From assembly GCA_964387595.1 (NCBI GenBank), contig CAYLYF010000004.1, positions 2,139-66,138 of the forward strand: DNA of 64,000 nt. The letters are read 5' to 3'. Made by a program: the position numbers and the translations under genes. Source of the stretch: an uncultured Thermodesulfobacteriota bacterium. Its GTDB lineage: Bacteria; Desulfobacterota; WTBG01; CAIYCZ01; CAIRTM01. The notes under the pieces were generated by a model, which searched no databases, was not told the DNA's origin, and saw only the letters and a list, made by a program, of their open reading frames with translations. Below, in pieces: positions 13,850 through 29,817 of this stretch (position 1 is its first letter; every line of letters starts with the position of its first letter).

Positions 13850-15046
13850 ATGAGAGAAGTTGTCGTTCTGGGCGCCTGCCGAACACCTATTGGAAGTTTC
13901 CTGGGCACCTTAAAAAATGTTCATGTAAAAGAACTGGGCAGGATTGTCGGTTCGGAAGCAATTAAAAGAGCAGGAATAACAGCGGATGATATTGACGAGA
14001 TTGTGTGCGGCAATGTGATTCAGGCGGGTGCCGGAGGGAATGTGGGCCGGCAGATACAGGGGGCTCTCGGTATTCCCTGGTCTGCCCCAGCCTGTACTGT
14101 TAATCAGCTGTGTGCTTCGGCGATGCGTGCTTTTGAGATCGGTGCCCGGAACATTATTTGCGGCGCAACAGACAGTTGCCTTGTCCTGGGTGTGGAAAAT
14201 ATGACGATGGCGCCTTATTTGATTCCTCAGGCCCGCAGCGGATACCGGATGGGTTCCGGAACCCTTGAGGACGCCATGCTTCTGGACGCGCTGGTGTGTT
14301 CGGTCGAGAATTATCATATGGGCGTAACAGCGGAAAACATTGCAACGCATTTTGAGATCTCAAGGCAGGAGCAGGATGCGCTTGCGGTGTTAAGTCAGAA
14401 TCGGGCAGCAGCTGCCATAAAAAGTGGAAGATTTAAAGACGAGATCGTTCCGGTTCAGGTCAAAAACAGGAAAGAGACCATTCTTTTTGATACGGATGAA
14501 CATCCCCGCGGAGGCACAACGGAAGAGACCTTATCGAAGTTAAAGCCTGTTTTCAGGGAAAACGGTACAGTCACTGCCGGAAATGCTTCCGGGGTGAATG
14601 ACGGAGCGGCTGCGGTGATACTGATGTTGCGGGAGAAAGCAGAAAAACTCAATCTTATTCCCCGGGTAAAAGTTCTTGCGACAGCAAGCGTGGGAGTTGA
14701 GCCGGAGGTGATGGGGCTGGGCCCTGCCCGGGCCATTCCCGGAGCCTTAAAATCGGCAGGACTTGATTTTGAACAAATAGATTATTTTGAGGTCAATGAA
14801 GCTTTCGCGGCCCAGTTTCTGGGGGTGGGAAGAATTCTTGAAATAGAGTACGGAATGGTTCTTAACATGGAAAAAACTAACCGGAACGGGTCAGGTATTT
14901 CACTTGGACATCCGGTAGGCTGTTCAGGCCTTCGCGTCATTGTGTCGCTGATTCATGAAATGTATAAAACGGGCGAAAACCTGGGCTGCGCATCCCTGTG
15001 TGCCGGGGGTGGCCCGGGTATGGCAGCCATACTTGAAAGGCTGTAA
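13850..15046 (+). CDS. acetyl-CoA C-acyltransferase (thiolase)
   Basis: VLGACRTPIGSFLGTL, NQLCASAMRA (the active-site Cys) and a C-terminal GGGPGMAAILERL. Confidence 0.85.
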   Translation: MREVVVLGACRTPIGSFLGTLKNVHVKELGRIVGSEAIKRAGITADDIDEIVCGNVIQAGAGGNVGRQIQGALGIPWSAPACTVNQLCASAMRAFEIGARNIICGATDSCLVLGVENMTMAPYLIPQARSGYRMGSGTLEDAMLLDALVCSVENYHMGVTAENIATHFEISRQEQDALAVLSQNRAAAAIKSGRFKDEIVPVQVKNRKETILFDTDEHPRGGTTEETLSKLKPVFRENGTVTAGNASGVNDGAAAVILMLREKAEKLNLIPRVKVLATASVGVEPEVMGLGPARAIPGALKSAGLDFEQIDYFEVNEAFAAQFLGVGRILEIEYGMVLNMEKTNRNGSGISLGHPVGCSGLRVIVSLIHEMYKTGENLGCASLCAGGGPGMAAILERL

Positions 15047-15170
15047 CCGGCGGAGTTTCTGAGCGAAAAGGTGATGCGCACACGCCACATTCAGGTATGG
15101 AGCTTCCACAAAATAAATGCCATGAACATAAAATAAAGTAAAAACCTGAAAATATTATTGTGAGAAAAAA

Positions 15171-16187
15171 ATGGAAAATTCTAAAAAAAAAGGGCTGCTT
15201 GTCTACGATTCAATATATGGCGCGACTGCAGAAGTAGCCTACTGGATAAAAGATCTGATCGGAAAAGAGCACTACCTTGAGGTGAAGCGACAGGGTCAGG
15301 TGACGACGGTCAGGCCCTTTGATTATATTATTATCGGCAGTTACACCCGGCGGGAAAAACCTTCCAAAGCAACTTATGCCTTTGTACAGAAACATCTTGA
15401 AGATCTGTCTCAAAAACAGGTGTGCTATTTTCTGACCTGCGGAGACAGTGACGAAACCCAGCTGCTTAATATTCCCGGATCACCTCCCCATTTGATTGCC
15501 GGGCGGAATTATTTTACGGATATCCTTAAAAAATTTTCGGCGGTAAAGCCGTTGGTGATCGGCGGGTTTGGGGGGCGGCAGGTCTATCCGGCGCTTCACC
15601 TGATGGACAGATTAACCGTTGATCTGGTGGGGAAAATGGCCAAGGAAAGCGGTGCGCCCTGGCAGGGACGCGATATCTGGGAATCGCTGATCCCGGAACG
15701 GGTGGAGGTTTTTGCCGGAGAGATCCGGGAGAAAATACTTGAAAAGCCGGCAAAAGAAGATGTTATGCCGTACCGATGCTATTGGCAATCCATTCTTCCA
15801 GCAGCACTTAGTGATGACGGGATGTTAAAGCAGGATCCCGGGAAGTACACCACCCGGCTGAGTACACCGAAAGTCTATTTTAGCAGGTCACATATCAGAG
15901 GTGATTTTGAAACGCTGGATCCTCTTATCCTTGAATGGGCCGATCAGGCGGGTGTTCAGTTGCTTGAGCAGAGCAGAACATTTTTTAACATCTATTGCCA
16001 TGCTGTAAAATCATACCGTAATAAGAAAGCAACCATTCACATAACTTCGGCCGTTTTTCCTGAGGATCCCGGTAATGTTCATGTTGCCTTTCGCTGTTAT
16101 GAAAAACAGCCGGCGCGTGAGGGAGCTGAACACGATATTCAGAGTGCAGAAAAAATCCTGTGGGCAGAAGGCCGTCAGGTGGAATGA
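15171..16187 (+). CDS. flavodoxin-domain protein with an uncharacterised C-terminal extension
   Basis: The N-terminal KKGLLVYDSIYGATAEVAYWIKDLIG resembles a flavodoxin. The total length is 338 aa. Confidence 0.45.
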   Translation: MENSKKKGLLVYDSIYGATAEVAYWIKDLIGKEHYLEVKRQGQVTTVRPFDYIIIGSYTRREKPSKATYAFVQKHLEDLSQKQVCYFLTCGDSDETQLLNIPGSPPHLIAGRNYFTDILKKFSAVKPLVIGGFGGRQVYPALHLMDRLTVDLVGKMAKESGAPWQGRDIWESLIPERVEVFAGEIREKILEKPAKEDVMPYRCYWQSILPAALSDDGMLKQDPGKYTTRLSTPKVYFSRSHIRGDFETLDPLILEWADQAGVQLLEQSRTFFNIYCHAVKSYRNKKATIHITSAVFPEDPGNVHVAFRCYEKQPAREGAEHDIQSAEKILWAEGRQVE

Positions 16188-16393
16188 AATAATGCTGCCG
16201 GTGGTGTCAGAACCGGATTTTCCAACGAATCTGGCATTCCGGAAGATCAGAACAAAAGGCTATGAGAAGACAATGCGCAGCCCTCTTAAGCGGGATACAT
16301 TCTTTTCTTAACAGGAATATGCTTTTCAGATCAGCCAAAAGCAATCTTTCTTTTAAATAAAGATTTTAATGCATGACTAAAAAGGAGGGAAAG

Positions 16394-17947
16394 ATGAAAA
16401 GGGCAATTTGTTTTAGTCTGGGGTTTGTGTTTTTTATGCTTGCGGCAGAGAGTGCCCTGGCAACGGTGAAACTGTTTGATGAAAAGCTTACTTTAAACGG
16501 TTATGTAAAGGAAGTGGCTTTCTACAGAACCAGCATGCAGGATATGGAGGCGAAATATCATGATACGAACTTTGATTTCTTAAAGACAAGCGCTGGTATT
16601 GAGGCACTCTACAGCATAAAGGAGAGTCAGGATCTGACCATTCGGTTTTTTACGGGGTTAAAATGGTGGTATGAAGCCGCGCCCAGAATTGATGACCAGT
16701 ATGGACGGTCGATGGATCACCGGTTCAAAAAAGATTACGTGACGCCGAGGGATTTTGATGAGGATGTGCTGAATGAGGCATATTTTGATTTTATCAGCGG
16801 TCCCTTTCAGGTCCGAATCGGAAAGCAGATCGTTGTTTGGGGAAACCTTGATGTAGACCGGGCCGCGGATGTAGTTAATCCCGTTGATCTTCGCCACGCC
16901 ATGTTTGGTGTAGACAAGTGGGAAGAATTCAAGCGCGGCATATTTATGATTCGGATGTTCTACCAGACCCAGCTTCCGGGTAATCTCCGCATGGAAGCTA
17001 TATTCAATCCCGGTGATTTTAAACAGGATCTTCTTCCCCTGGACGGCGGTGGTCATTACGGCACGCCGCTCCACCTGAACAATCCATTTGATTCAGATCC
17101 ATCCTTTATGCACTGGCAGTTTGAGAAATCCCGCAGGGATGCGCCGGGGTGGAGCACAAACAACTATGAGTTCGGGTTCAAACTCAGCGGGTATACCTGG
17201 GATATTGACTGGAGCCTGATCTATTATAATTCAATAAACGGTGCTCCTATTATTGATCCCAAAGCTGTCGGACCTTTCATGGAGCAGTATATTTTTGGAA
17301 ATATTCTGCCCTGGCAGGAGGTGGGCGACTGGCCCGGTTACAGGGTTTTTAAATATAAACGGAATCAGATTGTGGGTGGTACTTTTGAAAAATGTATGAC
17401 AAGCGGCGGACTGCTTCGCGGGTCTACCCTTACAGTAGAATGGTATTATGATATCCATTCCCCGTTTAATCTTGGGACCAACGGGGATGCCTCTGCTACC
17501 TATGGAATGATCAGAAAAAACATATTGGGAGGAGCGGTAAAGTTTTATCAGAAATATAATATCCCTGGATTTACCCAAAGCCGGATCTGCACGGGAAAAC
17601 AGTTTGAAATGACCATCACCTATTACTTTGAAAAAATTTTCAAGGATGAGTATGATCTGATTCAGAATACACGCTATCATCGCCGGGGGGATTCTGTGGC
17701 GGATAGTATTTCGGTATTTTGCATGCAGCCGATGTTTAATTATGTCTGGACTTTCGTATTTAACTCCTACTACAAACCCAGAATTGGTAAATGGTTTGTG
17801 ATGCCTGCGGTAAGATATAATTTCCCCGGCAAGCATTGGTCGTTTGAAACAGGTCTCTGCCTTTATGGCGGTGCAAAAAATGACTATACCCACAGTGTTT
17901 ATGAACATAAGGACAGTGTGATATTGAAACTTACCTATGAGTGGTAA
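16394..17947 (+). CDS. DUF1302 family outer-membrane protein
   Basis: It has a signal peptide (MKRAICFSLGFVFFMLAAESALA) after the RBS AAGGAGGG. The ORF-track start at 16373 is upstream of this RBS. It is paralogous to 24700-26268 and is followed by a DUF1329 gene, as is typical. Confidence 0.65.
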   Translation: MKRAICFSLGFVFFMLAAESALATVKLFDEKLTLNGYVKEVAFYRTSMQDMEAKYHDTNFDFLKTSAGIEALYSIKESQDLTIRFFTGLKWWYEAAPRIDDQYGRSMDHRFKKDYVTPRDFDEDVLNEAYFDFISGPFQVRIGKQIVVWGNLDVDRAADVVNPVDLRHAMFGVDKWEEFKRGIFMIRMFYQTQLPGNLRMEAIFNPGDFKQDLLPLDGGGHYGTPLHLNNPFDSDPSFMHWQFEKSRRDAPGWSTNNYEFGFKLSGYTWDIDWSLIYYNSINGAPIIDPKAVGPFMEQYIFGNILPWQEVGDWPGYRVFKYKRNQIVGGTFEKCMTSGGLLRGSTLTVEWYYDIHSPFNLGTNGDASATYGMIRKNILGGAVKFYQKYNIPGFTQSRICTGKQFEMTITYYFEKIFKDEYDLIQNTRYHRRGDSVADSISVFCMQPMFNYVWTFVFNSYYKPRIGKWFVMPAVRYNFPGKHWSFETGLCLYGGAKNDYTHSVYEHKDSVILKLTYEW

Positions 17948-17984
17948 TGACATTTAAAATTCTTTTTGGAAGGGGGATACATTA

Positions 17985-19265
17985 ATGAAAGAAATAAAAA
18001 GACAGCATTATGTTTTTTGCTCCATGATTAGCTGTGTCATTTTACTTGTATTTTTCATATCCACATTGCGGGCTGAAGAAATAGTTTATCCGACTTCAGC
18101 TTATTCCAAAGATGAGCTTGCAAAGGTCAGGGAGTGGGAGAAAAACTGGGCAGGTAAAAACCTCGATAAAACAAACGTTGATCAGGTGGCTGAATTTTTG
18201 CCTGAATCTTATGTGGATATTTATAAAAATCCTGAAAAATGGGGGGCTCCTCCGGGTGAAAACATTACATCGATTCTTGTTCCGTACCAGCAGATCATTG
18301 AAACAAAGGGAATGATCGAAGCAACGAAAAAGTATGCACCTCTGGTTAAGACCAATCTGGACGGGTCCATCGCTAATTATGGTGAAATTGCGGGGGTGCC
18401 TTATCCGGCTCCGAAAACAGGTATTGAGATTGCCTGGAATATGGACTTTAATAACCATGGAGATACAGAGCATTATATGCGGGACGGACCGAACATCAAT
18501 CCGAAACAGAGAACCGAACGGTCCAGCAAGCAGGAGCAATGGTATTTGACTTTCATGCACCGGACTGAAATGGATCCCAAACCGGTACTGCCTACTAAAA
18601 AAGGAATTCTTCGCGGAACCTTTGTTCATATGTATGAACCTCCAGAGTTTATCAATACCCGGTACTATAATTTGAGATTTATGGATACGGCGAAAGATGA
18701 TATGACCTATTTCTGGTATGCCCAGTTCAGGAGAATCAGGCGTTTATCTACCACCCAGCGTACGGATTCGATTGATGGTACGGACCTGATTTATGATGAT
18801 GAATTTTTCTGGGATGGACATATTACCCGGAATACCTATACGCACAAAGGGAAGAAAGATCTTTTATGCTGTCGACACCAGGATGTGTCAAAGTTTAACC
18901 GTCCTAACGGCCAGATTATGTCAAACGACCTGATGCTGGAACGTCTGAACACACTGGTGGTGGATGTGTTCAACAAGGACCCGAGTTATCTATACAGCAA
19001 GCGGATCTGGTATGTTGACCCGGAGACTTATATTATTTTATGGACAGAGATCTACGATCAGAAGGGGCGTTTCTGGAAATGTTTCATGCAAAACACGGGG
19101 AACAATAAAACAGCCCTGGGTGAGACCAAGAACAATATTGTGGGATCGGTCTTTGTGGATTACCAGCGGACTCATGGCGGGCACAGTACAAACAAAATAA
19201 AAGGGGTTTCTGTTGAGCTCGATACCAAGATGTTTTCCATAACGAATCTGCAGAGAACGTACTAA
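17985..19265 (+). CDS. DUF1329 family (LolA-like) periplasmic / outer-membrane protein
   Basis: It is paralogous to 26292-27560. The two share the C-terminus ...NLQRTY and internal blocks (AKVREWEKNWAGK, DDEFFWDGHI). Confidence 0.65.
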   Translation: MKEIKRQHYVFCSMISCVILLVFFISTLRAEEIVYPTSAYSKDELAKVREWEKNWAGKNLDKTNVDQVAEFLPESYVDIYKNPEKWGAPPGENITSILVPYQQIIETKGMIEATKKYAPLVKTNLDGSIANYGEIAGVPYPAPKTGIEIAWNMDFNNHGDTEHYMRDGPNINPKQRTERSSKQEQWYLTFMHRTEMDPKPVLPTKKGILRGTFVHMYEPPEFINTRYYNLRFMDTAKDDMTYFWYAQFRRIRRLSTTQRTDSIDGTDLIYDDEFFWDGHITRNTYTHKGKKDLLCCRHQDVSKFNRPNGQIMSNDLMLERLNTLVVDVFNKDPSYLYSKRIWYVDPETYIILWTEIYDQKGRFWKCFMQNTGNNKTALGETKNNIVGSVFVDYQRTHGGHSTNKIKGVSVELDTKMFSITNLQRTY

Positions 19266-19295
19266 AATCATTAATTAAACAAAGGAGGGTTAGCT

Positions 19296-21278
19296 ATGAG
19301 ACGAAAAGCTTTAAATCAATTTACGGATTTTGTAATGGCAGTTCTGGGCCTGCTCTGTCTGCTTGGCAGTCAGTCGGCTTTTGCTCAGGGTGTAATTGTG
19401 ACAGAAGACCAGACAATTGCAGACAAGTTTACACGGCATACGGTAACTGGTATTACTACACCGCAGCCTGTACTGCCTGACGTTCCCGGATTTATTGGCG
19501 CATCATATATAACTATTGAGGATATCGATGAGAATGGAATATTGGATATTATATCCACCTCGGGAATGGGTCTTGATTCTAATCCAATGACTGCTGACGG
19601 GTCGATCGCTCTTTTTACCTGGGACGGCAGTAACAAGGATGTCTGGGTACAGACAATTATTGAAGATACTTTTTATTTTCCCAATGAAACAATTGTGAAA
19701 GATCTGGATGGAGACGGATATCTTGACATCATTATCATGGACAAGTTTATTTTCGGGGACTTTCCGGGTGGAATTTATTGTCTTAAAAATGGTGGCGGAA
19801 CCATTACCGATCCTTCTAACTGGACACGTGAAACAGTTTTCGAAGATTTATCTCTTGATTCTACACACAGTTATCATCGGGCTCAATTCATTGACCTTGA
19901 TAATGATAACTACGATGATATCGTGACAACGAACTGGGACGGCTGGATTGGCTGGCTGAAAAATAACGGAGATGGAACCTATAATAACGGCACTACCGGG
20001 TATAATAAACATGATATCGGAATCGGGGGTGGTTCTCTTTTTATAATGTATGATGTGGACGAGGATGGCGATCTGGATTTAATCGCTCCTCAGTTTCTTA
20101 TTACAGCAGGGATGATGAGTTGTGAAATTTTAGGCGGGCCATCAGGTACTGACCCGCTAGGTGATTCTCTGGTCTGGTTTGAAAATCCCGGTCTGCTTGC
20201 GCTTGCATCAAATCCTGATGTTCTGTGGAACCGCTATACAATAGATAACTGGTATACTTCTATCAATCCCCTAGGTAAGACAATGGAGATTATGGTTTCA
20301 GATATTGACAATGACGGTACCGATGAGCTGGTGGTCAGTAACCACAACCATCAGAACAGTGATGCAAATGGCAATAGAGTCTGGCCTTCCGGAATATACT
20401 TTCTGGAGATTCCAGGTCTGGGCGGTAACTCCGGCAGTCCGGTAGTTTCTGCTGACTGGGTACCCGTAGCCATTGAGACCGGTGATCCGGATTTAGTAAG
20501 AACGATCAATCCTTCAACCGGCAATTATTATCAGCCGTATGAAGATCCGGCTGTTATTAATGATGTTTATGCATCTGATAGAAGGGGCAGCTTCTATGAT
20601 CAGGGCTCTCCCGGTATGGTTCGTGCCGGTGATATTAATGACGATGATAAAAATGATATTGTAGTTCCCGGAGATGGAAAAGGTGTTGTGTATTATTATG
20701 AAGCCGGTGAAAAGGACGGCGCTAACTTGACTTTTAAAAGGGCTACTCTGTATCAGGATCTTCAGTCCATGCCGGGTGAAGCGGAAATTGTTGATATTGA
20801 CAAAGATGGTGATATGGATATTGTTTCTGTAATTTTTGACACAAGCGTTTCAAAGCTGTATCCGTACACCTCAAGTTCTATTTTTGTTTTTGCACAGAGT
20901 TCACCTTCGGACGGGGATGGTGATGGTGTTCCTGATTCGAATGATAACTGTCCGGATGCAGCCAACCCCGGCCAGGAAGATGCAGATAGTGATGGTGCCG
21001 GTGATGTTTGTGATGCGGATACAATTTATGGAACTATCAGTGGAGATATTCAGGAAGGAGTTACTGTACAGGTTGGTATAGTTAGTTGTGGTATTACTGT
21101 TGTGGTAATTTCGACAGAAACAAATGTAAATGGGTACTATTCATTCGGTGGTTTGGAAGAGGGCCTATACCTCCTTTGGGCTAGCGCTGCTGATTATAGT
21201 TTTGTTCCTACATTTAGCTGGCCGCGTATTCCGCAGGCAGTTATTCAGTCTTATGATTTTATTTCAAGCAATAACTGA
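19296..21278 (+). CDS. secreted FG-GAP / VCBS-repeat protein with a thrombospondin type-3 calcium-binding repeat and a CarboxypepD_reg-like C-terminal domain
   Basis: It has a signal peptide and repeated DxDxDG motifs (DIDENGILDI, DLDGDGYLDI, DVDEDGDLDL). There is an exact TSP3 signature (DGDGDGVPDSNDNCPDAANPGQEDADSDGAGDVCD). The C-terminal beta-sandwich reads VGIVSCGITVVVISTETNVNGYYSF. Confidence 0.65.
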   Translation: MRRKALNQFTDFVMAVLGLLCLLGSQSAFAQGVIVTEDQTIADKFTRHTVTGITTPQPVLPDVPGFIGASYITIEDIDENGILDIISTSGMGLDSNPMTADGSIALFTWDGSNKDVWVQTIIEDTFYFPNETIVKDLDGDGYLDIIIMDKFIFGDFPGGIYCLKNGGGTITDPSNWTRETVFEDLSLDSTHSYHRAQFIDLDNDNYDDIVTTNWDGWIGWLKNNGDGTYNNGTTGYNKHDIGIGGGSLFIMYDVDEDGDLDLIAPQFLITAGMMSCEILGGPSGTDPLGDSLVWFENPGLLALASNPDVLWNRYTIDNWYTSINPLGKTMEIMVSDIDNDGTDELVVSNHNHQNSDANGNRVWPSGIYFLEIPGLGGNSGSPVVSADWVPVAIETGDPDLVRTINPSTGNYYQPYEDPAVINDVYASDRRGSFYDQGSPGMVRAGDINDDDKNDIVVPGDGKGVVYYYEAGEKDGANLTFKRATLYQDLQSMPGEAEIVDIDKDGDMDIVSVIFDTSVSKLYPYTSSSIFVFAQSSPSDGDGDGVPDSNDNCPDAANPGQEDADSDGAGDVCDADTIYGTISGDIQEGVTVQVGIVSCGITVVVISTETNVNGYYSFGGLEEGLYLLWASAADYSFVPTFSWPRIPQAVIQSYDFISSNN

Positions 21279-21303
21279 AGAAGTTTAGACTTGATATTTT
21301 TTT

Positions 21304-21340
21304 AAAAAAGGCAGGGTTTTTCCCTGCCTAGCTTTCTTTT
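21304..21340 (+). terminator. rho-independent terminator (GGCAGGG-TTTTT-CCCTGCC followed by a T-rich tract)
   Basis: A hairpin plus U-run lying 26 nt after the stop of the FG-GAP gene. Confidence 0.6.
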
Positions 21341-21692
21341 TCAATTTGAGATGAAGGCCGCAGGGCGGGATGAAGAAAATATACAAAAAAAGGGTTTAAT
21401 TCCTGAAGGACAGAAAGACAGAAGCCTTGAAATGATTCCCAAAAAGTTTAACTGGCCAAAAATAACTCCTGATAAAATGATATTGCTTGATGTGAAACCA
21501 GGGGCATATCCTCTTCAAAAGATATGGGAACCGGGCTCTGCAACTATTCGAAATTATGCCGGATGATCGAACTGAAATGCATGTTCTAGCCTCTGATAAA
21601 ACACCGGACTCTCTGGGCGAAGATTTTAAATGGGAAACGAACCGATTTTATAAAAAACCCCAGTCGCTATATCTTGAAAGAAGGAGATAATA

Positions 21693-22502
21693 ATGTTTGT
21701 CGTAATTGTTAAATATACTTTTCTGGTTCTGATGTCTATCATTTTACTTGCTGTTCTGGCGGCAATACCCTTTAGGATCAAAGCCCGGAAAGAGGGGGAT
21801 CGGCTTTATTCCCGGTATGAATCCTATACCAATGAAGTTCTGGCGCAGCGTTTCGAATTGCATGAATTTTCAGTTAAAGCGGAATACAGAAAACTTCATC
21901 CTGCCAAATTTTTAAAGACCATGAAATTTCTGGTAATCAGCCGGCAAAGTGATCGTCTTGCCCGGATTAATTCTCTGGATGCCACCCTGTTTTATTTTAT
22001 AAAAATGTATACCCTGATGCTCCGGCCTGATTATGCCTACAATCTGCCGGTCCTTTCCATTGATTTCATTTTTATCGGCGGAAAGCGGGTCTATGTTATT
22101 GAAATAATTGATCCGGCCAGGATCGATGATTCCAACAAGGAGCGATACTATGCAGAGATGAAAAAATGGATGCCGCAGGTTGCAAAATTCAAACAATCCA
22201 AAGTCAGTGACTGGTTTTTTGACTATATTACGGATTTTAGCATCCATATCTCTGCTGATCGTGCTGATGATGAGTTGCTGTTTGAGATTTACAAAACCTA
22301 TCTGAATGCTTATCTGGACATGGCTGAACATGCAGAAAAAGTCAGCCCTGAACAGAGCCAAAAGCTTAAAGCGGGTCTGGAGAAATTTGTCACGACTCTA
22401 CTTGACAAGGGCGGTCCGGCTGTAAATGTGTTTGAGAAATTTATGGGGCCTGAAAAACAGCGGGAATATATACGGACGGTTATGTTTGGTCTTGAGAAAT
22501 AA
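21693..22502 (+). CDS. ferredoxin-dependent bilin reductase (FDBR, Fe_bilin_red)-like protein with an N-terminal transmembrane helix (putative)
   Basis: RPDYAYNLPVLSIDFIFIGGKRVYVIEIIDP aligns with the FDBR core block (PebA [32 protein letters not shown]). The C-terminal VFEKFMGPEKQREYIRTVMF resembles the FDBR C-terminal F..FG..W/E....F motif. Confidence 0.4.
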   Translation: MFVVIVKYTFLVLMSIILLAVLAAIPFRIKARKEGDRLYSRYESYTNEVLAQRFELHEFSVKAEYRKLHPAKFLKTMKFLVISRQSDRLARINSLDATLFYFIKMYTLMLRPDYAYNLPVLSIDFIFIGGKRVYVIEIIDPARIDDSNKERYYAEMKKWMPQVAKFKQSKVSDWFFDYITDFSIHISADRADDELLFEIYKTYLNAYLDMAEHAEKVSPEQSQKLKAGLEKFVTTLLDKGGPAVNVFEKFMGPEKQREYIRTVMFGLEK

Positions 22503-22644
22503 CCGAAGTTAAGGAACTTGTCTGTGAGTAATCAGGTTTTTGTATCATTGAATAATAATGCATGGATTGGGAAAGTGTTGAAGTTTTGTGCTTTCTTTGT
22601 TTGTACTATAAACAGTTTTTATAAATAGCTTGGAGGAATAAAAC

Positions 22645-23916
22645 ATGAACTACGATATTGCAATTGTTGGCGCAGGGCCGGCAGGGCTGATGGCAGCCAA
22701 AAGAGCTTCGGAACAGGGATTGAAAGTGGTCCTGATTGAAAAAAGAAAAGATATCTCAAAAATTACCCGGGCCTGCTGTCAGTTTTTTATTATGGATGAG
22801 GACTTCCAGGGAGAGACCATCCGGATCGAAGATAACAGCGTTGTTTTTAACCAAAACAAATTTGAAGTGGCCTACAGCGGCCCGCTTCTGTCCGTGACAG
22901 ATAAATACTTTATTTCACCCGGGGGGCATAAAATTCATTTTGCCCATGAGGATAAAAAACCACTGGTAATCAAGTTTGATAAGGGGCAGTTGCTGCATGG
23001 CCTGCTGGAGGACTGTGTGCGCCTGGGGGTTGAATTTTTAAATGCATCGAAAATAAAAAGTATTGAAGACCGTGACGATAAAATATCTATAAGTTTAACC
23101 CGGGGGAATGGTGAAGAAAAACTTACAGCCAAAAAACTGGTGATTGCAGACGGGGTGAATACGCCTGCAGCCGAGATGCTGGGACTCAACAGCGGCAGAG
23201 CTCTTTTTACAAAAGTGCTGGTAACCGTATCCACTCTGGAAGGGGTAAAGAATTTTGAGCCGGCCACCCTGAAAAGTTATATGGGAGCCGCCTACCGTTC
23301 TTTTGCGCCTGTAATCATGGGCCCTGCTTTTGGTAGTGATGACATGCGGTATCTGGTGCTGATCGGGACTAAGGAGCGAAGGCCGGAAAAACTGTTTGAA
23401 GAAATTACCATGAATAGCCCGCTTAAACCCATGTTTGAAAATGCCCGGATTGTAAAAAAGGCCGCCTGTACGGCAACCGCCTACAGTTCAATGAAGGTCC
23501 CTCATCGTGGAAATGTTCTGGTGATCGGAGATGCGGCTGCATATGTTGAAGTGGAGACTCAGGGAGCGCTGACCTGCGGTTATCGGGCAGCAGATGCGGT
23601 TTTTGATGAGATTGAGAATAAAAAAGGATTTGAAGCGTATACAAAATGGTGGCAGGACTCCTTTGAGTTCAACGGGGATGATTACCTGCAGGTAGCGCAG
23701 GGGTTTGCTCTTGTGCCGACTTATACGGATGACGAGCTTGACTATCTTTTCGCGCTGATTGAAGGGGAAAGACTGGAAGGGACGTATAACCAGTACAAAT
23801 CACCGAAAGTGATGTGGGGAGCAATACTTAAGCATCGTGAAAGAATTTCACTTGAACGTCCGGCACTTATCAAGAAAATAGACAGTAGAAAACTGTTGCT
23901 TTCGGATTCTTTGTGA
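22645..23916 (+). CDS. FAD-dependent oxidoreductase, geranylgeranyl-reductase-like (paralog of 9248-10576)
   Basis: MNYDIAIVGAGPAGLMAAKRASEQGLKVVLIEKRKDISKITR. It is co-linear with its paralog along the whole length. Confidence 0.7.
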   Translation: MNYDIAIVGAGPAGLMAAKRASEQGLKVVLIEKRKDISKITRACCQFFIMDEDFQGETIRIEDNSVVFNQNKFEVAYSGPLLSVTDKYFISPGGHKIHFAHEDKKPLVIKFDKGQLLHGLLEDCVRLGVEFLNASKIKSIEDRDDKISISLTRGNGEEKLTAKKLVIADGVNTPAAEMLGLNSGRALFTKVLVTVSTLEGVKNFEPATLKSYMGAAYRSFAPVIMGPAFGSDDMRYLVLIGTKERRPEKLFEEITMNSPLKPMFENARIVKKAACTATAYSSMKVPHRGNVLVIGDAAAYVEVETQGALTCGYRAADAVFDEIENKKGFEAYTKWWQDSFEFNGDDYLQVAQGFALVPTYTDDELDYLFALIEGERLEGTYNQYKSPKVMWGAILKHRERISLERPALIKKIDSRKLLLSDSL

Positions 23917-24156
23917 AACATGTCGGATTTTCAGATAAATAAAAAATCTGTCAGACATTGAACTTATTATTTGATGAGCTGTGAAGATGTAAATACCGTT
24001 TGCCGATAGCGGATTAGAATAAAACTGCTTAATCATAATTGACGGTATCTGCACAGGTTTTTATTTTTGATTTTTTAGATTAACTCGTAATCCATATGGA
24101 ATAATATATAAAGGAAGTAAGATAATTAAGAAAAACAAAAAGAATCAAAAAAATAG

Positions 24157-24168
24157 TTGACTTGTCAA
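24157..24168. promoter_or_regulatory. Palindromic box TTGACTTGTCAA (MarR-type operator candidate). It overlaps a -35 element, with -10 TATGTT 16 nt downstream.
   Basis: One of four TTGAC-N2-GTCAA sites. The others are at 24281, 33188 and 33444. Confidence 0.45.
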
Positions 24169-24280
24169 TTGAGAGTGCTATGTTTTATTCAAGAATCAAA
24201 AACTTGGTTTAAATACCTGAATTTTAAATAAATAAAAAGGGCAAATAATTAATTAAAGCAAGGAAATTCAAAACATATAG

Positions 24281-24292
24281 TTGACATGTCAA
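24281..24292. promoter_or_regulatory. Palindromic box TTGACATGTCAA, within a tandem duplicate of the promoter/operator unit
   Basis: The 24141-24200 and 24263-24330 units share ATAGTTGACNTGTCAATTG ... TTTTATTCA. Confidence 0.45.
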
Positions 24293-24541
24293 TTGTATAT
24301 TAGTCTTTTATTCAGTGAATTTTATGTTTTTATTTGAGCGCTTCCCGGGCAACTGCAGACTCAGACCTGTGATTATTTTAAATAACAAAATCCTGAATAT
24401 ATCTATTTGTCAGAGAGGCGGCGCTGAGTTGTCTTTCCGATGATCGGCATTGGTGTTTCCGAATCTCTTTAAAAGAATGATCCTTGCGGATCAATAAGCC
24501 TCTGATGAGCAGAGAGGAAAGGGAGTAAAGTTTATAAAAGA

Positions 24542-24655
24542 AAAAGGTATTGGAGGAAATGGAAATTTTCTCATTACGGACCCCCTCCAAATAAGAAAAA
24601 ACCTGTTTCCTCTATGCCTTTTGATTTAATCGTAAGGAGGTTGTTTTGAAAATAA
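24542..24655 (+). promoter_or_regulatory. Conserved ~110-nt leader element, copy B (TTGGAGG ... CCCCCTCCAA ... TAAGGAGGTTGTTTTG)
   Basis: It matches copy A. The homology extends upstream (24484-24541 versus 10563-10620) into what is the 3' end of the GG-reductase-like gene in copy A. Confidence 0.6.
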
Positions 24656-24699
24656 ATTGTTTTTCATTATATAACATAATCTTTGAGAAAGGAGGAGGC

Positions 24700-26268
24700 A
24701 TGAAAAACAAATTTAAGCAAAAAGGAGGAGTCTTCTTTTTGGCAGCACTTGTTTTTTTTGGGCTATGCGGAAAGGCCGGGGCGACAATTTCTCTGTATGA
24801 CGGAAAGCTGATATTAAGTGGTTTTGCCAAAGAAACAGTGTATGTGCGAACCGACCAGTCAAAACGTGAGCAGGAGTACAGGGATACGGCACTGGATTTG
24901 GCTAAAACGAGTCTCTACATTGAAGCACTGTATACCCTCAGAGAGTGCCCTGATCTGACGGTGCGAATGTTTACAAGCGTTAAGTGGTGGTATGAGTCAA
25001 CTTCAGGTTTTCTGGATGACAATCAGAGACGACACATTCTCCACCGACACCGTAAGCAATATACTTCGCCCCGAAAATTTGATGATGATATTTTAACGGA
25101 AGCTTATGTTGATATTATTAAAGGACCCTTTCAAGTCCGTCTGGGCAAGCAGATCGTTATCTGGGGTCAGCTGGATGTAGATAAAGTTGCCGATGTGGTT
25201 AACCCGATTGATTTCCGCTGGAATGTGCCGGGGATTGATGCCTGGGAAGAAATAAAAAAGGGACTGTGGATGGTTCGTATGTTCTACCAGACTGATTTGC
25301 CCGGAAATATACTTTTAGAAGGTATTTTTAACCCGGGATACTTTCAGGAGTTCCGGCTTCCCTATGATGGAACACACTGGGGGGTTCCCTATGACGAGCC
25401 TTTTGGCGCTTCAGGTATGACGATATTTGGATGGCAGCAGGAGAAGATGCACCGGGATGCCCGAAGATGGAGTCTGAGCGAAAACTATGAGTGGGGATTC
25501 AGGATCCGGGGGTATTCTCTGGGTATTGACTGGACTTTGCTTTTTTGGAATGCCCCTTCAGACAGTCCGACAGCTGATCCCCGGCGCCTGGGTGATTTCA
25601 GTATGCAGTATGTGTCGGGTGCTTTAGGCGCTGCGATCTTCGGAGGGTCTATCAATCCGGGCAACTGGCCGGAATACAAGGTGTACCGGTATAAACGGCT
25701 TCAGACCTTCGGCGGTACGGCCCAGTACTGTGCCGATTGGCTTCATGGCTCGATCTGGCGTCTGGAATGGTTTTACAACAAAGGGCAGCCCTTTAACCGG
25801 GGAGGAAGGGGAAGTGTTTCTGATATAGATGGCTGGACACGCCGAGATACCTATGGATTTGCAGTCTCCTGCTCTGACAAGTTCCGCCTTCCGGGTGTGA
25901 GCAACACTATCGGGCGGGGTAAGATGCTTGATGTGACGTTGACCTTTTTCTGGGATAAAATCAGGGATAACAACCATGATCTTTATAAAAGTGCCTTGAA
26001 TCACCGGCCCGGTGATTCAACGACTGAAGGGTTTTCAATTTTTCTCATGCAGATGATGTTCAGCGGAGAGTGGACTTTTACTTTTATCGGAAATTACAAG
26101 CCTCGCATCAACAAATATTTCGGCTGTCCGACTATGACCTATTCCTTTTCGGGAAGCCACTGGTATATGGATATAGGCTATAAATTTTACGGTGCAAGGC
26201 ACGGTTATAATTACGGTTCTTATCATGATAAAGATGCGGTCATATTCCGGCTGCGTTATGAATTCTAG
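24700..26268 (+). CDS. DUF1302 family outer-membrane protein (paralog 2)
   Basis: The likely start is at ATG 24700, after GGAGGAGG (MKNKFKQKGGVFFLAALVFFGLCGKAGA signal peptide). The ORF-track start at TTG 24646 lies inside the leader element. Confidence 0.6.
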   Translation: MKNKFKQKGGVFFLAALVFFGLCGKAGATISLYDGKLILSGFAKETVYVRTDQSKREQEYRDTALDLAKTSLYIEALYTLRECPDLTVRMFTSVKWWYESTSGFLDDNQRRHILHRHRKQYTSPRKFDDDILTEAYVDIIKGPFQVRLGKQIVIWGQLDVDKVADVVNPIDFRWNVPGIDAWEEIKKGLWMVRMFYQTDLPGNILLEGIFNPGYFQEFRLPYDGTHWGVPYDEPFGASGMTIFGWQQEKMHRDARRWSLSENYEWGFRIRGYSLGIDWTLLFWNAPSDSPTADPRRLGDFSMQYVSGALGAAIFGGSINPGNWPEYKVYRYKRLQTFGGTAQYCADWLHGSIWRLEWFYNKGQPFNRGGRGSVSDIDGWTRRDTYGFAVSCSDKFRLPGVSNTIGRGKMLDVTLTFFWDKIRDNNHDLYKSALNHRPGDSTTEGFSIFLMQMMFSGEWTFTFIGNYKPRINKYFGCPTMTYSFSGSHWYMDIGYKFYGARHGYNYGSYHDKDAVIFRLRYEF

Positions 26269-26291
26269 AATTAGGAAGGAGAGATTATTTT

Positions 26292-27560
26292 ATGAAAGTA
26301 ATAAATCACAAATTATGGCTTAACGGGCTGGCTGTATGGGCAGTATTATGGGCAGGTATTGTTTCAGCGGCGGAAATTGATTATCCGGTTGCAGCTTATT
26401 TCGGAGAGGAGCTTGCAAAGGTCAGGGCCTGGGAAAAAACATGGGCCGGCAAAAAGATCGACGGAAGCAATATTGATCAGGTTGCCGAGTTTTTGCCCGA
26501 ATCATTTGCCGGGATGTATAAAGAACCGGAAAAGTGGGCAGCTCCAGAAGAAGGTCTTTTTTTTAATATTGTTCCTTATCAGCGGGTTATGGACACTCAG
26601 GGCATGATTGATGCGACCCAAAAAAATGCGCCACTTGTTAAGACCAATGATGACGGAACCATAGTGAATTATGCGGGGCTGGCCGGGATCCCTTATCCGA
26701 CACCGAAAACAGGACTTGAAATTGCCTGGAACTTTGATTCTACCAATCATGGAGACAGCGCGCATTACAAACGGAATTCTCCCAATATTAACCCGAAAAC
26801 CCGGTCGGAGCGGTTTGGCGATCAGGAGCAATGGGAACTGTATTTTGTTCACCGTACAGAACTTGATCCTAAACCCCAAATTCCAAAGAACCCGAAGGGG
26901 TATCATCGCGGAACTTTTATCCATATGTGGGGTCCGCCGGAGTTCATGAATACGCGTTATTTCTCGATGCGGTTTATAGATCCGAAAAAAGATGATTCCA
27001 TGTATATGTGGTACCAGGCCTTTCGGCGCATCCGGAGAATGTCCACAAAACAACGTTCAGACGCGGTTGATGGAACAGACCTTATTTATGATGATGAGTT
27101 CTTTTGGGATGGTCATATTATGCGCAACACCTATGAATTTAAAGGCACCAGAGAACTGCTCTGCTCTCGTCATCAGGATATGAAAAAAGTAAGCCGCGCA
27201 ACCGGTCAGATTGTGCCCAATAACCTGGATCTGGAGCGGACAAAGCTGCTGGTTGTTGAAGTCATAAATAAAGACGCTAATTATATATATGGAAAGCGGG
27301 TCTGGTATGTGTGCCCGGAGACCTACATTATTCGCTGGACGGATATATATGATGAAAAGGGACGTTTCTGGAAGACCTTTGCCATGTTTACAAATGATGT
27401 AAAAACAAAAACCGGCGCTGTTAAAAATTTTATAGTGGGGTATTCGCTTATAGATTTTCAGCGAACTCACGGCGGGTATAATATCCAGGATATCCAGGGT
27501 ATCAGTATTGATGTGAACCCGAAAATTTTTACGATCAGTAATCTGCAGAGAACGTATTAG
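26292..27560 (+). CDS. DUF1329 family protein (paralog 2)
   Basis: It has a signal peptide and is co-linear with 17985-19265. Confidence 0.65.
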   Translation: MKVINHKLWLNGLAVWAVLWAGIVSAAEIDYPVAAYFGEELAKVRAWEKTWAGKKIDGSNIDQVAEFLPESFAGMYKEPEKWAAPEEGLFFNIVPYQRVMDTQGMIDATQKNAPLVKTNDDGTIVNYAGLAGIPYPTPKTGLEIAWNFDSTNHGDSAHYKRNSPNINPKTRSERFGDQEQWELYFVHRTELDPKPQIPKNPKGYHRGTFIHMWGPPEFMNTRYFSMRFIDPKKDDSMYMWYQAFRRIRRMSTKQRSDAVDGTDLIYDDEFFWDGHIMRNTYEFKGTRELLCSRHQDMKKVSRATGQIVPNNLDLERTKLLVVEVINKDANYIYGKRVWYVCPETYIIRWTDIYDEKGRFWKTFAMFTNDVKTKTGAVKNFIVGYSLIDFQRTHGGYNIQDIQGISIDVNPKIFTISNLQRTY

Positions 27561-27630
27561 TAATCAATTTCAATTAAAAATCGTTTTTATGGCTTTTTTA
27601 AATTGAAATTGATTCAGGAGGAAATGAAGT

Positions 27631-29718
27631 ATGGACAAAAAACCAAAAAACACGTTTATTACAGCCTGTCTTTTTTTGGCGGTTTTATTAGCCTTAACAG
27701 TTGTTTGTTCTGCTGATGCGCAAACAGTTCCTCCAGCGATTGAAAGCATAACAGCAGAAGACAACTCAATCTGGGAAAGGGTATCAACGGAAGGGTTCGG
27801 TAATTCCAATAATATCGGAATCAGTGCTTTGTGCGCGTATAATGATAATTTGTATGCCCTGACACGAAATGATGTTGAAGGGTTTCAGCTGTGGCAGGCC
27901 GGAACAGCCGGCTGGACCCGGCTGAGCATACCGGGTTTTACTGACAGCGTGCGTCAGCCTTTTTTAAACGGCGGTTACAGTGCCATGACTGTTTTTGACA
28001 ACAGGCTGTATGTGGCGGTTGGTTCCGGGTATGAGGGAGACATGCTTTTCCGCTCTGTCGGCCTGGAAATCTGGCGCTTTGACGGGACAGTCTGGCAGGC
28101 CGTGATCAGTGATGCAAGAAGTGATGGCCAAAAAGAATCCGGGCAGATTACATCTCTGAGCGATTGCGCTGCTGATGATACGGCCATGACTGCGCTGGTT
28201 TCTGACTCAACCAAGGCCTGGACAGTTAACCAGTGGGCCGGAGGTGTGCTGAAGATATCATCCGGTGACGGTGCGGGCCGGGTTTTTGATATTATCAGCA
28301 ATGATAATACGACTTTAACCATTCAGCAGAATGAGGCGGCAACAGAGGATGAATATACGATTTGCGCTTCTTTTGCGCCGGATGCAGACCGCTCGGAGAT
28401 GACCGTTGGCTCGGTTGCTCAGAGTGACAGCTATCTTGTGACGCTGGGCTGGAAAGCAAACGGTTTTGGAGAGATCTGGAACAAGAATCTTATTGGCTTT
28501 GAAGAATACCAGGGCCGTCTGTATCTTTCTGTCGCGCTAAATTATGCGGACGGGACCCGGGTTTGGCGAAGTTCCGACGGTCTTGAGTGGGAGCCGACTT
28601 CAGAGTACAGTTTTGGTCTGATGCATGGTTATGATATGGACGGGGTTGAAACCGGTTTTTGTTTGGTAGACGGTTATGAATACCGTAATGGCGGTCCGGT
28701 TTGTTCCAGCGCCACATATCTGCATGCCAGTGATGTGACGGGTACGGAAAGCCTGTTCGCGGGCGGAACCGGTTCGACCGGCTGCAATGGCCGAGGGGCA
28801 AGGGTATTAAAATATGACGGAACGGAGTGGGCGTTTTTAGTTGATTATTTTGTAGATACTGATGATGAGGGTACGAATGAAAACGGGCTTGGCGATGCAG
28901 CCGATTTTTTAAGCGCTAATTTTCAGGCCTGGTCCTGGGCGGATTATGATGACCATCTTTTTCTCGGTATCGCCCGGACAATTGGCAGCCGAATCATGTA
29001 TACTGCGACAGGAGACACGGCCAATGATTCATGGAAATATGCTGTGGGCGGTGACGGGCCGATGCCGGATGGTTTTGACGGGGCCGGTGGGCTTCTGGGA
29101 TATGGAAGGGGACTGGGATCTCATCTGTATACATATAATAATGCGTTGTGGGCAGCCTGTTTTGTAAACGCGGCTGTTGCAGGCTTACCGTGGAAACTTG
29201 ATGGGGCAGATATCTGGCGGGCAACCGGGTCAGCGGACGCTTTGGTTTGGACGCGGATAACGGACAACGCCTTCGGCAACCGGGGAATTATTACCTTTGG
29301 CAATCCTGTTGAATTTGACGATACCCTGTATGTTGGGGGTTCAAATATTTTTGGAAACTTTACGGAAAACGCTGCTCCAGACGGAAATGGATGTCTGGTT
29401 TTCAGGCTGGCCAGCCGTTCAGACTGGATCGATCTTGACAGCCTGGATGCAGACGAGAAGAAGTTTTTCATAGACCTGTCTTGGACGGTGGATACTTCAT
29501 CGACGATTAATGGATATAATGTGTATGTATCACGTAATTCTGATATGCTTTTTAAACGAAAGTTAAACCTGAGCCTGATTGAAGATACCAGTTTTATCCA
29601 CGGCATTGTATGGCCGGGAAGCAAGTGGTGGTATGTGATAGAAGCGGTCGGATCAGATGGTAAAACAGCAGTTTTTGGGCCAGTCCCATCGACGGCAAAG
29701 AAATTTTTTGAAAACTGA
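27631..29718 (+). CDS. secreted beta-propeller-like repeat protein with a C-terminal fibronectin-III-like domain
   Basis: It has a signal peptide (MDKKPKNTFITACLFLAVLLALTVVCSADA). Internal Trp/Gly-rich repeats recur (LYALTRND..GFQLWQAG, LYVAVGSG..LEIWRFDG). The C-terminus reads YNVYVSRNSDM...WWYVIEAVGSDGK. Confidence 0.4.
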   Translation: MDKKPKNTFITACLFLAVLLALTVVCSADAQTVPPAIESITAEDNSIWERVSTEGFGNSNNIGISALCAYNDNLYALTRNDVEGFQLWQAGTAGWTRLSIPGFTDSVRQPFLNGGYSAMTVFDNRLYVAVGSGYEGDMLFRSVGLEIWRFDGTVWQAVISDARSDGQKESGQITSLSDCAADDTAMTALVSDSTKAWTVNQWAGGVLKISSGDGAGRVFDIISNDNTTLTIQQNEAATEDEYTICASFAPDADRSEMTVGSVAQSDSYLVTLGWKANGFGEIWNKNLIGFEEYQGRLYLSVALNYADGTRVWRSSDGLEWEPTSEYSFGLMHGYDMDGVETGFCLVDGYEYRNGGPVCSSATYLHASDVTGTESLFAGGTGSTGCNGRGARVLKYDGTEWAFLVDYFVDTDDEGTNENGLGDAADFLSANFQAWSWADYDDHLFLGIARTIGSRIMYTATGDTANDSWKYAVGGDGPMPDGFDGAGGLLGYGRGLGSHLYTYNNALWAACFVNAAVAGLPWKLDGADIWRATGSADALVWTRITDNAFGNRGIITFGNPVEFDDTLYVGGSNIFGNFTENAAPDGNGCLVFRLASRSDWIDLDSLDADEKKFFIDLSWTVDTSSTINGYNVYVSRNSDMLFKRKLNLSLIEDTSFIHGIVWPGSKWWYVIEAVGSDGKTAVFGPVPSTAKKFFEN

Positions 29719-29817
29719 TAAAGGTTGTATTTCTTGATCGGAAGCGTGACGCGCATACGCCAAGTCCTGGAGTGAAGTTAAGTAATATGTATGCAAAATA
29801 ATCCGGATTAATTTAAG

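Follow-up and report, generated by a model that had tools for sequence, protein, structure and literature searches.

A membrane-anchored protein of the ferredoxin-dependent bilin reductase superfamily and its gene neighbourhood in an uncultured Thermodesulfobacteriota bacterium

The stretch of DNA analysed here, referred to below as the window, comprises 64,000 nucleotides from an uncultured Thermodesulfobacteriota bacterium (GenBank assembly GCA_964387595.1, contig CAYLYF010000004.1). At 21693–22502 (+) it carries a gene whose 269-amino-acid (aa) product belongs to the superfamily of ferredoxin-dependent bilin reductases (FDBRs) and is predicted to be anchored in the membrane by an N-terminal helix; we refer to the protein and its gene as TM-FDBR. 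The FDBRs known so far are soluble enzymes that make pigments in phototrophs and their phages; lately they have also been found in a few heterotrophs, which carry them together with heme oxygenase and globins. The three peptides by which the initial annotation had characterized this reading frame are all present in the translation, RPDYAYNLPVLSIDFIFIGGKRVYVIEIIDP as residues 111–141, VFEKFMGPEKQREYIRTVMF as residues 246–265 and FLVLMSIILLAVLAAIPF as residues 10–27. The codons of the predicted transmembrane helix (YTFLVLMSIILLAVLAAIPF, residues 8–27) lie at 21714–21773 (+), and those of the FDBR domain (residues 48–265, delimited by the Pfam envelope and by alignment to solved FDBRs) at 21834–22487 (+). 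Within the domain, Asp124 (codon 22062–22064, +) is the counterpart of the catalytic Asp105 of Synechocystis PcyA, and an invariant Gly240-Gly241-Pro242 motif (GGP) is encoded at 22410–22418 (+). The Shine-Dalgarno sequence AAGGAGA is found at 21681–21687 (+), 5 nt before the ATG. Because a strong intrinsic-terminator-like hairpin at 21309–21329 (+) closes the preceding FG-GAP gene, TM-FDBR probably opens its own transcription unit. The 414-nt gap upstream of TM-FDBR (21279–21692) also contains a 71-aa open reading frame (ORF; 21351–21566, +) that some public annotations list as a gene; it matches no Pfam family, a search gave no homologue, and we noticed no counterpart at related loci.

The FDBR-like character assigned by the initial annotation was borne out by both profile and structure comparisons. 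The Pfam model Fe_bilin_red (PF05996), and not an unrelated family, matches residues 48–265 with 63.6 bits (E = 2.8e-17; gathering cut-off, 31) in an alignment that spans profile positions 6–227 of 228. The NCBIfam equivalog models were all failed: PebA gave 47 bits against a cut-off of 263, the two PebB models 42 against 327 and 39 against 283, PcyA 25.8 against 206, and NF009721 23.9 against 303. Since the superfamily model is passed and the equivalogs are not, TM-FDBR is a member of the FDBR superfamily that stands outside the known enzyme groups; it is not PcyA, PebA or PebB, and probably not a pre-PcyA protein. A profile built from 31 members of the TM-FDBR family and compared with the PDB found PebB, PcyA, PebA and HY2 with E values from 2e-11 to 6e-4. 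The AlphaFold2 model computed from 112 sequences (pLDDT, 94.9; pTM, 0.89) predicts an unbroken helix over residues 2–53 followed by the FDBR alpha/beta/alpha sandwich. In Foldseek comparisons, this model superposes on PebB with TM-scores of 0.71–0.73 (E = 2e-12) and on PcyA, PebA and HY2 with 0.70, 0.72 and 0.72 (the solved references for PebA, PebB, HY2 and PcyA are PDB 2x9o, 6qwq/6qx6, 6kmd and 2g18/2d1e), although sequence identity to the solved FDBRs is only 12–18%. The likeness to these enzymes thus extends to the sandwich fold (0.70–0.73), the central Asp and a Pfam score above threshold, and the 'GPA' of the TM-FDBR C-terminal helix resembles the 'DPA' motif of PebA and PebB. RCCR and CPO (HemF) share the superfold, but the model is nearer to the FDBRs (~0.7) than to RCCR (~0.6) or CPO (~0.5), and the RCCR model of Pfam (PF06405) does not match TM-FDBR. 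RCCR is the catabolic ferredoxin-dependent member of this superfold, and the pathways to which RCCR and CPO belong are aerobic and require oxygen.

Unlike the PebA, PebB, HY2 and PcyA enzymes, TM-FDBR has an anchor, and the possibility that the helix is an artefact of a mis-called start had been raised together with the first description of it. A protein search found 184 homologues, mostly of 262–270 aa and 50–83% identical, which cover the query from residue 1. Of the 111 full-length homologues, 110 have an uncharged N-terminal stretch that is 17 residues long or longer (mean length, 21 aa; mean Kyte-Doolittle value, 2.9). The position of this stretch is kept and its sequence is poorly conserved, and this combination of kept hydrophobicity and poor sequence conservation is the pattern expected for a membrane anchor. 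As judged from these sequences, the N-terminal transmembrane helix is a conserved family trait and not a start artefact. A soluble FDBR-like protein translated from a downstream start would find a parallel in some distant relatives (25–38% identity overall), among them P0128, P0129, P0131, P0142 and P0144 at 30–38%, which have no N-terminal hydrophobic segment; other, very distant FDBR-like proteins have N-terminal helices of their own. We nevertheless regard a soluble product as practically out of the question, considering that AAGGAGA stands 5 nt before the first ATG, that the homologues align over 100% of the query including the N-terminus, that the hydrophobic stretch keeps its place in 110 of 111 of them despite low conservation, and that the model has a pLDDT of 89–93 for residues 1–30. 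The start-codon artefact was therefore rejected on the grounds of the strong Shine-Dalgarno sequence and the family-wide helix. Our literature search returned nothing relevant on membrane-anchored FDBRs or on a combination of bilin reductase, geranylgeranyl reductase (GGR) and flavodoxin.

The residues around the anchor favour a cytoplasmic catalytic domain: Lys and Arg together number 1.4 on average ahead of the helix and 3.7 within the 15 residues that follow. The partner proteins described below have no signal peptides, which supports this orientation. However, the net charges of the two flanks are similar (+1.4 versus +1.1), and the alternative topology, a periplasmic domain that is supplied by a secreted heme-c/PNPOx protein, may apply.

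To locate the active site, the TM-FDBR family was aligned with Nostoc PcyA, Guillardia PebB and Synechococcus PebA, and the reference catalytic residues of FDBRs were taken from Frascogna et al. 2026 (PMC13446030). Asp124 occupies the position of Asp105 in PcyA and PebS; it is invariant in the alignment of 112 family sequences and near-invariant in relatives down to about 25% identity. The second set of catalytic residues, whether His88/Glu76 or the distal Asp, was not found: the His88 position of PcyA is Thr107 in TM-FDBR; Glu76 of PcyA has no clear equivalent in the alignment, in which Asp96 is one position off; and the distal Asp (PebS D206, HY2 D256, PcyA D220) is replaced by Gly241 within the invariant GGP. 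Thr for His88 and Gly for the distal Asp thus set TM-FDBR apart from PebA, PebB, HY2 and PcyA. At the position of PcyA Ser114, a propionate-contacting position in the PcyA structure, the family has Arg132. Conserved residues that are specific to the clade comprise T107, the GGP motif, R132, E137, D140, Trp174 and Asp193, and the pocket residues R132, E137, D140, H185 and D193 are invariant or nearly so in the 112 sequences.

These replacements might be taken to mean that TM-FDBR has no reductase activity left and, with the FDBR fold retained, acts as a scaffold or binds ligands at the membrane to which it is tethered, in the role of a tetrapyrrole carrier, chaperone or sensor. Of the three canonical catalytic positions, two have been given up, a PcyA-like structural subunit of the Ycf2-FtsHi motor complex (8xqw/8xks) is among the fold and sequence matches, and POZ53557, the first pre-1 protein to be tested, showed very low activity in the co-expression assay of 2023 (PMC10151467). 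On the other side stand the central Asp and the invariant or nearly invariant R132, E137, D140, H185 and D193, the tight pairing, at 30 of 39 loci, with a gene for an electron carrier, the occurrence of a ferredoxin-FDBR fusion in the same gene set, and the finding of activity for pre-1 and pre-2 although they have neither His88 nor Glu76 (PMC13446030). A scaffold role is in our view improbable, and because so many polar residues are conserved, the alignment argues for an enzyme with a catalytic arrangement of its own rather than a decayed fold.

The pre-PcyA proteins (pre-1 to pre-3), which are FDBRs found in bacterial heterotrophs (Rockwell et al. 2023, PMC10151467; Frascogna et al. 2026, PMC13446030), are the obvious comparison. 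Like TM-FDBR, they occur in non-photosynthetic hosts and are without the His88 and Glu76 of PcyA; Thr is found at the His88 position in pre-3 and some pre-1 proteins, and the central Asp in pre-2 and pre-3. Unlike TM-FDBR, they are soluble. The gene clusters of pre-1 and pre-3 contain heme oxygenase, an Fe-S protein, a V4R pair and a BBAG globin, and those of pre-2 a B12-binding protein and a globin (PMC10151467), whereas neither these genes nor a phytochrome gene was found in the window or at any of the 39 TM-FDBR loci compared below. It could still be supposed that TM-FDBR is an ordinary bilin-biosynthetic FDBR of the pre-PcyA or PebA kind, which reduces biliverdin to supply a photoreceptor or a bilin-binding globin. 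Its best weak matches are the PebA, PebB and PcyA models, and heterotrophic bacteria do carry active pre-PcyA enzymes (PMC13446030, PMC10151467). However, the equivalog scores amount to 24–47 bits against cut-offs of 206–327, the hosts are anaerobic whereas heme oxygenase needs O2, the surroundings look catabolic (thiolase, CoA-transferase, amidohydrolase and aldehyde:ferredoxin oxidoreductase [AOR] genes), and no described FDBR is known to have a membrane anchor, nor did our literature search turn one up. None of the loci examined has a heme oxygenase, BBAG, V4R or phytochrome gene, which makes classical bilin biosynthesis unlikely, and we judge this explanation to be very improbable. Two uncharacterised FDBR clades of 'placement uncertain', with D6734_12105 as the 'Unknown' query of the supplement, are mentioned without a description (PMC13193486; Frascogna et al. 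2026), and the TM-FDBR family may be one of them.

The gene context was counted over 39 TM-FDBR loci; several metagenome-assembled genomes (MAGs) have two copies in different settings (loci L007 and L014 come from one MAG). In the commonest arrangement, the genes DUF1329 <- DUF1302 <- MMPL/RND <- BNR diverge from [TetR] -> GGR-like -> flavodoxin-domain protein -> TM-FDBR, in which the GGR-like FAD enzyme has about 453 aa and the flavodoxin-domain protein 334–429 aa. The flavodoxin-domain protein, the most frequent partner, adjoins TM-FDBR in 30 of the 39 loci; a GGR-like gene is near it in 24 and DUF1302 in 15, and unbiased clustering found MMPL and BNR in 14–15 loci each. The co-occurrence with GGR-like and DUF1302/DUF1329 genes, which the initial annotation had proposed to survey, therefore recurs across related loci.

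Pairing with a flavodoxin-domain protein is another difference from PebA, PebB, HY2 and PcyA. The proposed electron donor of the window is a two-domain protein of 338 aa encoded at 15171–16187 (+), with a Flavodoxin_5/HemG-like N-domain (64.2 bits; cut-off, 27) and a conserved C-terminal domain of about 150 aa that has no Pfam or PDB sequence match. In the window, DUF1302a (outer-membrane protein; 16373–17947, +), DUF1329a (LolA-like; 17985–19265, +) and the FG-GAP gene lie between it and TM-FDBR, and tblastn showed no trace of a former flavodoxin gene in the 414 nt upstream of TM-FDBR. BilR/BilS and HemG provide precedents for a flavodoxin-type accessory paired with an enzyme that reduces or oxidises tetrapyrroles, but the window protein is far below the respective cut-offs (HemG equivalog, 32.5 versus 142 bits; BilS, 27.7 versus 155) and has the additional C-terminal domain. 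BilR belongs to the Old Yellow Enzyme family and does not have the FDBR fold.

Directly downstream of TM-FDBR lies the GGR-like FAD-dependent oxidoreductase GGR2 (22645–23916, +; PF01494), followed by DUF1302b (24646–26268, +) and DUF1329b (26292–27560, +), as first described. The flavoenzyme part of that description holds in a reduced form: GGR2 is a GGR-like FAD enzyme, but it scores 82.7 bits against the GG-reductase cut-off of 158.8 (TIGR02032). The GGR-like proteins of the window, which include GGR-like enzyme 1 at 9248–10576 (+), a gene that recurs near CPO-like and TM-FDBR genes, reach 66–83 bits and weakly match the GGR, MenJ and UbiH families; GGR2 is a generic FAD enzyme of the GGR/UbiH class.

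The DUF1302/DUF1329/BNR/RND genes of related TM-FDBR loci correspond to the four-part AmeABCD module of Castellaniella defragrans and its Pseudomonas equivalents, in which the BNR protein is Ycf48-like and the RND protein is of the HAE3/MMPL type; all four components are found beside the TM-FDBR homologues of L004, L006 and about 14 further loci. The window differs from this module in having only DUF1302 and DUF1329, each twice, with no MMPL or BNR detected; an FG-GAP protein and an unclassified, apparently repeat-rich secreted protein of 695 aa occupy the places of BNR and RND. To our knowledge, no FDBR-like gene has been reported beside Ame-type systems. AmeABCD-type cassettes handle hydrophobic compounds, and their characterised relatives act on monoterpenes, fatty esters and hopanoids (PMC6394551; bioRxiv 2020.07.04.188060).

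The copy of the window represents a second setting, shared with L001, L007 and L011 (73–79% identity), in which the neighbours are CPO-like, secreted CxxCH/PNPOx protein, FMN reductase, GlcDEF-like, amidohydrolase and thiolase genes; the larger, variable gene set also includes CoA-transferase, AOR and sometimes UbiD. L007 has the operon UbiD -> TM-FDBR -> CPO-like -> flavodoxin protein -> PNPOx, with the UbiD-family decarboxylase (8459–9955 of that locus) directly upstream of the TM-FDBR homologue. The secreted protein at 8427–9245 (+) of the window, which recurs near CPO-like and TM-FDBR genes, combines a signal peptide with one CxxCH heme-c motif (CADCH) and a split-barrel domain of the PNPOx type, which is unusual for a secreted protein. 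The Amidohydrolase_2 gene at 12731–13771 (+) is 91–92% identical in L001, L074 and L083, compared with 53–89% for most neighbours, which suggests unusually strong constraint or recent exchange; nearly all of it is overlapped by an antisense ORF of 341 aa (12692–13717). In L027, two genes beside TM-FDBR (10960–12405 and 15327–17165 of that locus) have a faint, sub-threshold similarity to ferrochelatase (E = 3e-4 and 1e-2), which we record as a hint only.

The ORF at 7510–8265 (+), initially called weakly HemF-like, proved to be so at the level of the fold. It has no Pfam or NCBIfam match, and its family profile touches only human CPO (E = 2.4, not significant) through two collinear motifs, so that membership in the family was not established by sequence. 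In contrast, the top 19 PDB matches of its AlphaFold2 model (pLDDT, 89.3) in Foldseek are all HemF/CPO (E = 2.5e-9; TM-score up to 0.79), and PcyA and RCCR rank after them, so the product is predicted to have the CPO fold. We also considered the CPO-like protein as a direct relative of the FDBRs by sequence and rejected this (hhalign probability, 0.5%); the link is one of fold only. The CPO-like gene adjoins TM-FDBR in L007 and is close to it in L029. Its family was found at 43 loci with the same recurring gene set, and apart from the L007 arrangement the CPO-like gene recurs with that set in 21 further loci; CxxCH/PNPOx homologues occur in 12 of the 21 long CPO-like loci. None of the genes of the pre-PcyA context was found in the 43 CPO-like loci either.

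Two further FDBR-like genes lie downstream. One, at 34789–35874 (+), encodes a ferredoxin-FDBR fusion with two 4Fe-4S domains (Fer4) and a PF05996 domain (46.4 bits), in which the central Asp and a 'DP' motif are present. The other, at 35893–36600 (+), encodes a soluble FDBR-like protein in which Asn takes the place of the central Asp. Because the ORF at 7510–8265 has the CPO fold, the window contains four genes of the FDBR/CPO fold. The claim that the window holds three FDBR-like paralogs is valid at the superfamily level, but they are not recent paralogues: pairwise BLASTP gives only short, weak matches of 21–36% identity (E = 0.013, 0.002 and 4e-05). Homologues of the fusion (58–62%) and of the tandem FDBR-like gene (44–47%) occur as pairs in L077, L087 and L091, three of the 43 CPO-like loci, and a tandem pair of soluble FDBR-like genes is also found within the TM-FDBR cluster in L010 and L027.

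A sister strain (L052, ENA ERZ27316312) matches the window at 98.5% over 11693–24186 and at 87.6% over 33421–38582, and it has the uninterrupted order TM-FDBR -> GGR2 -> MarR -> SDR -> ferredoxin-FDBR -> FDBR -> AOR. Since the sister strain runs straight across without the intervening genes, we regard 24187–33420 of the window as a strain-variable cassette. This 9.2-kb segment carries DUF1302b, DUF1329b, the secreted proteins of 695 and 221 aa and FG-GAPb (minus strand), and a promoter-like sequence of about 55 bp is present at both of its edges. Between the genes for the 695-aa and 221-aa proteins, at about 30024–30182 (+), lies a fragment similar to a DUF1329 C-terminus (45% identity to residues 370–422 of the product of the gene at 26292; E = 4e-8), which is a probable pseudogene remnant. 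Beyond the cassette, a MarR regulator (33477–33926, +) and an SDR (34007–34798, +) head the operon that contains the two FDBR-like genes and an AOR-family gene (36687–38591, +). The product of the latter was considered as a BamB-like dearomatising reductase, and this was rejected, as it is nearer to ordinary AORs (216 bits to 9g7j versus 162 bits to BamB 4z3w). Palindromes of the TTGACnnGTCAA type occur at 24157–24168, 24281–24292, 33188–33199 and 33443–33454, only in the two intergenic regions that flank the cassette, and the longer 17-nt pattern has four sites compared with 0.05 expected by chance. They are plausible candidate MarR operators, common to the transporter cassette and the MarR-SDR-FDBR-AOR operon.

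The tetrapyrrole theme suggested by the initial annotation had also included a TspO homologue. TspO is real (52976–53365; PF03073, 127.5 bits), but it lies 30 kb from TM-FDBR in a separate cluster of lipid-modification type (52976–63709) and was excluded from the FDBR gene set. In addition to TspO, this cluster encodes CIA30-like, lipocalin, ATP10-like, cytochrome c, DUF2878, cyclopropane-fatty-acid synthase, DUF1365, amine oxidase, SDR, chalcone-isomerase-like and SnoaL proteins, of which the cytochrome c has weak, sub-threshold matches of multiheme type. Near the other end of the window, a TetR regulator (1840–2436, +) is followed by a 144-aa ORF (2554–2988, +) that matches only TetR C-terminal domains; it is without a DNA-binding N-terminus and may be truncated or have a mis-called start.

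All known hosts of the TM-FDBR family are uncultured and appear as Thermodesulfobacteriota/"Deltaproteobacteria" MAGs or metagenomes; the record titles of the 39 loci refer to Lake Tanganyika-type 'DeepCast_150m', Lac Pavin, sediments and Danish 'MFD' samples. When 1.84 billion cluster representatives were searched with the family profile, 365 clusters matched at E <= 1e-3 and only 23 at E <= 1e-30, so that the family proper is small. The weaker matches include many FDBR-like proteins of 210–275 aa (among P0146–P0269), some of them soluble and some with an N-terminal hydrophobic helix of their own. Six of ten sampled distant FDBR-like proteins score under the Pfam FDBR threshold; FDBR-like proteins missed by the Pfam model therefore exist beyond the known groups. 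The contigs of four of these 'dark' proteins (P0121, P0159, P0179 and P0200) were too short or uninformative for gene context. In a small neighbour-joining tree with three PDB sequences (PcyA, PebA and PebB) and the two other FDBR-like genes of the window as references, the 25 TM-FDBR sequences form a monophyletic clade (bootstrap, 90) apart from PcyA and from PebA+PebB, and the genes at 34789–35874 and 35893–36600 pair together, apart from the TM-FDBR clade.

We tentatively propose, at a little less than even confidence, that TM-FDBR is a reductase driven by flavodoxin or ferredoxin, that it works at the membrane face and belongs to a gene set of catabolic appearance, and that its substrate is hydrophobic and probably derived from a tetrapyrrole. 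The catalytic domain would sit at the cytoplasmic face of the inner membrane and would receive single electrons from the flavodoxin-domain protein or from a ferredoxin. Asp124 would donate the proton for the reduction of a C=C bond in a conjugated, hydrophobic compound partitioning into the membrane, and this compound would most likely be a tetrapyrrole derivative, linear or cyclic, of heme, chlorophyll or bilin origin. That electron transfer matters is argued by the ferredoxin-FDBR fusion in the same gene set. The step would be part of an oxygen-independent transformation or catabolic route and not of pigment biosynthesis, which is less likely because thiolase, CoA-transferase, amidohydrolase, GlcDEF-like and AOR genes surround TM-FDBR. 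FDBR catalysis, as seen in the mechanisms of PcyA and PebS, uses no cofactor, the substrate radicals being stabilised by the extended pyrrole pi-system. A tetrapyrrole is favoured because the fold recurs fourfold, the partner is HemG-like and the radical chemistry of FDBRs is cofactor-free; the substrate class is nevertheless the weakest step of the proposal.

Several observations weigh against this proposal. In addition to the replaced catalytic positions and the similar charges of the anchor flanks described above, TM-FDBR is not accompanied, in the window or at any related locus, by genes for heme oxygenase, a BBAG globin, V4R or phytochrome; the GGR-like neighbour varies by locus, GGR2 being about 28% identical to the 'canonical' 453-aa partner; and all data on the family come from MAGs and metagenomes. 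Moreover, an isoprenoid, quinone or polyene substrate would agree almost equally well with the Ame-type transporter, the GGR/UbiH/MenJ-like flavoenzymes and UbiD. TM-FDBR might then be a real reductase of a lipophilic conjugated compound other than a tetrapyrrole (an isoprenoid quinone, a polyene or carotenoid-like lipid, or a terpenoid), either membrane-resident or imported, that works with the GGR-like flavoenzymes while an AmeABCD-type system moves the compound across the envelope. The divergently adjacent DUF1302/DUF1329/BNR/HAE3-RND cassette in about 15 loci and the substrates of its relatives point in this direction, as do the weak matches of the GGR-like partners, the UbiD-family decarboxylase of L007, an anchor that suits a membrane-embedded substrate, and the lack of a heme oxygenase or bilin acceptor in any locus examined. 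However, isoprenoid or quinone biosynthesis genes were not found in the clusters, four proteins of this fold stand together with a HemG-like flavodoxin, and cofactor-free FDBR catalysis relies on the pyrrole pi-system. Furthermore, all characterised proteins with the FDBR/RCCR/CPO fold are tetrapyrrole binders, and none is known with another substrate (PMC13193486). We consider a non-tetrapyrrole substrate a serious but unlikely alternative to the tetrapyrrole-derived one.

The TM-FDBR clade differs from the known FDBRs in being membrane-anchored, restricted to anaerobes, provided with a flavodoxin-domain partner of its own and placed in a catabolic-looking set with three more proteins of the same superfold, with no heme oxygenase or bilin acceptor nearby. 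What is new is its architecture, partner set and host range, and its role is probably new too. It bears on the origin of FDBR chemistry before the cyanobacterial acquisition. In a more far-reaching and doubtful interpretation, the window would encode part of an undescribed O2-independent pathway; sulfate-reducing Thermodesulfobacteriota that live in anoxic waters and sediments would use it to import tetrapyrroles derived from heme, chlorophyll or bilin and to transform or degrade them reductively. The membrane-tethered FDBR with its own flavodoxin, the ferredoxin-FDBR fusion, the soluble FDBR-like protein and the CPO-fold protein would make up the set, and flavin reductases, AOR, a decarboxylase, an amidohydrolase and a thiolase would carry out later steps. 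As a corollary, the clade could represent an early-branching 'archae-FDBR' or 'pre-PebA' lineage of the kind sought by FDBR researchers (PMC13446030). Whichever reading of the substrate applies, the soluble domain, the flavodoxin-domain partner and a variant with D124N are targets for expression and assay. With a substrate other than a tetrapyrrole, TM-FDBR would be the first FDBR-fold enzyme outside tetrapyrrole chemistry. With a tetrapyrrole substrate, the clade would offer the first genetic handle on how heme, chlorophyll or bilins are broken down or salvaged anaerobically in sediments and stratified lakes, where anaerobic tetrapyrrole breakdown is a large and poorly understood flux of carbon and nitrogen.

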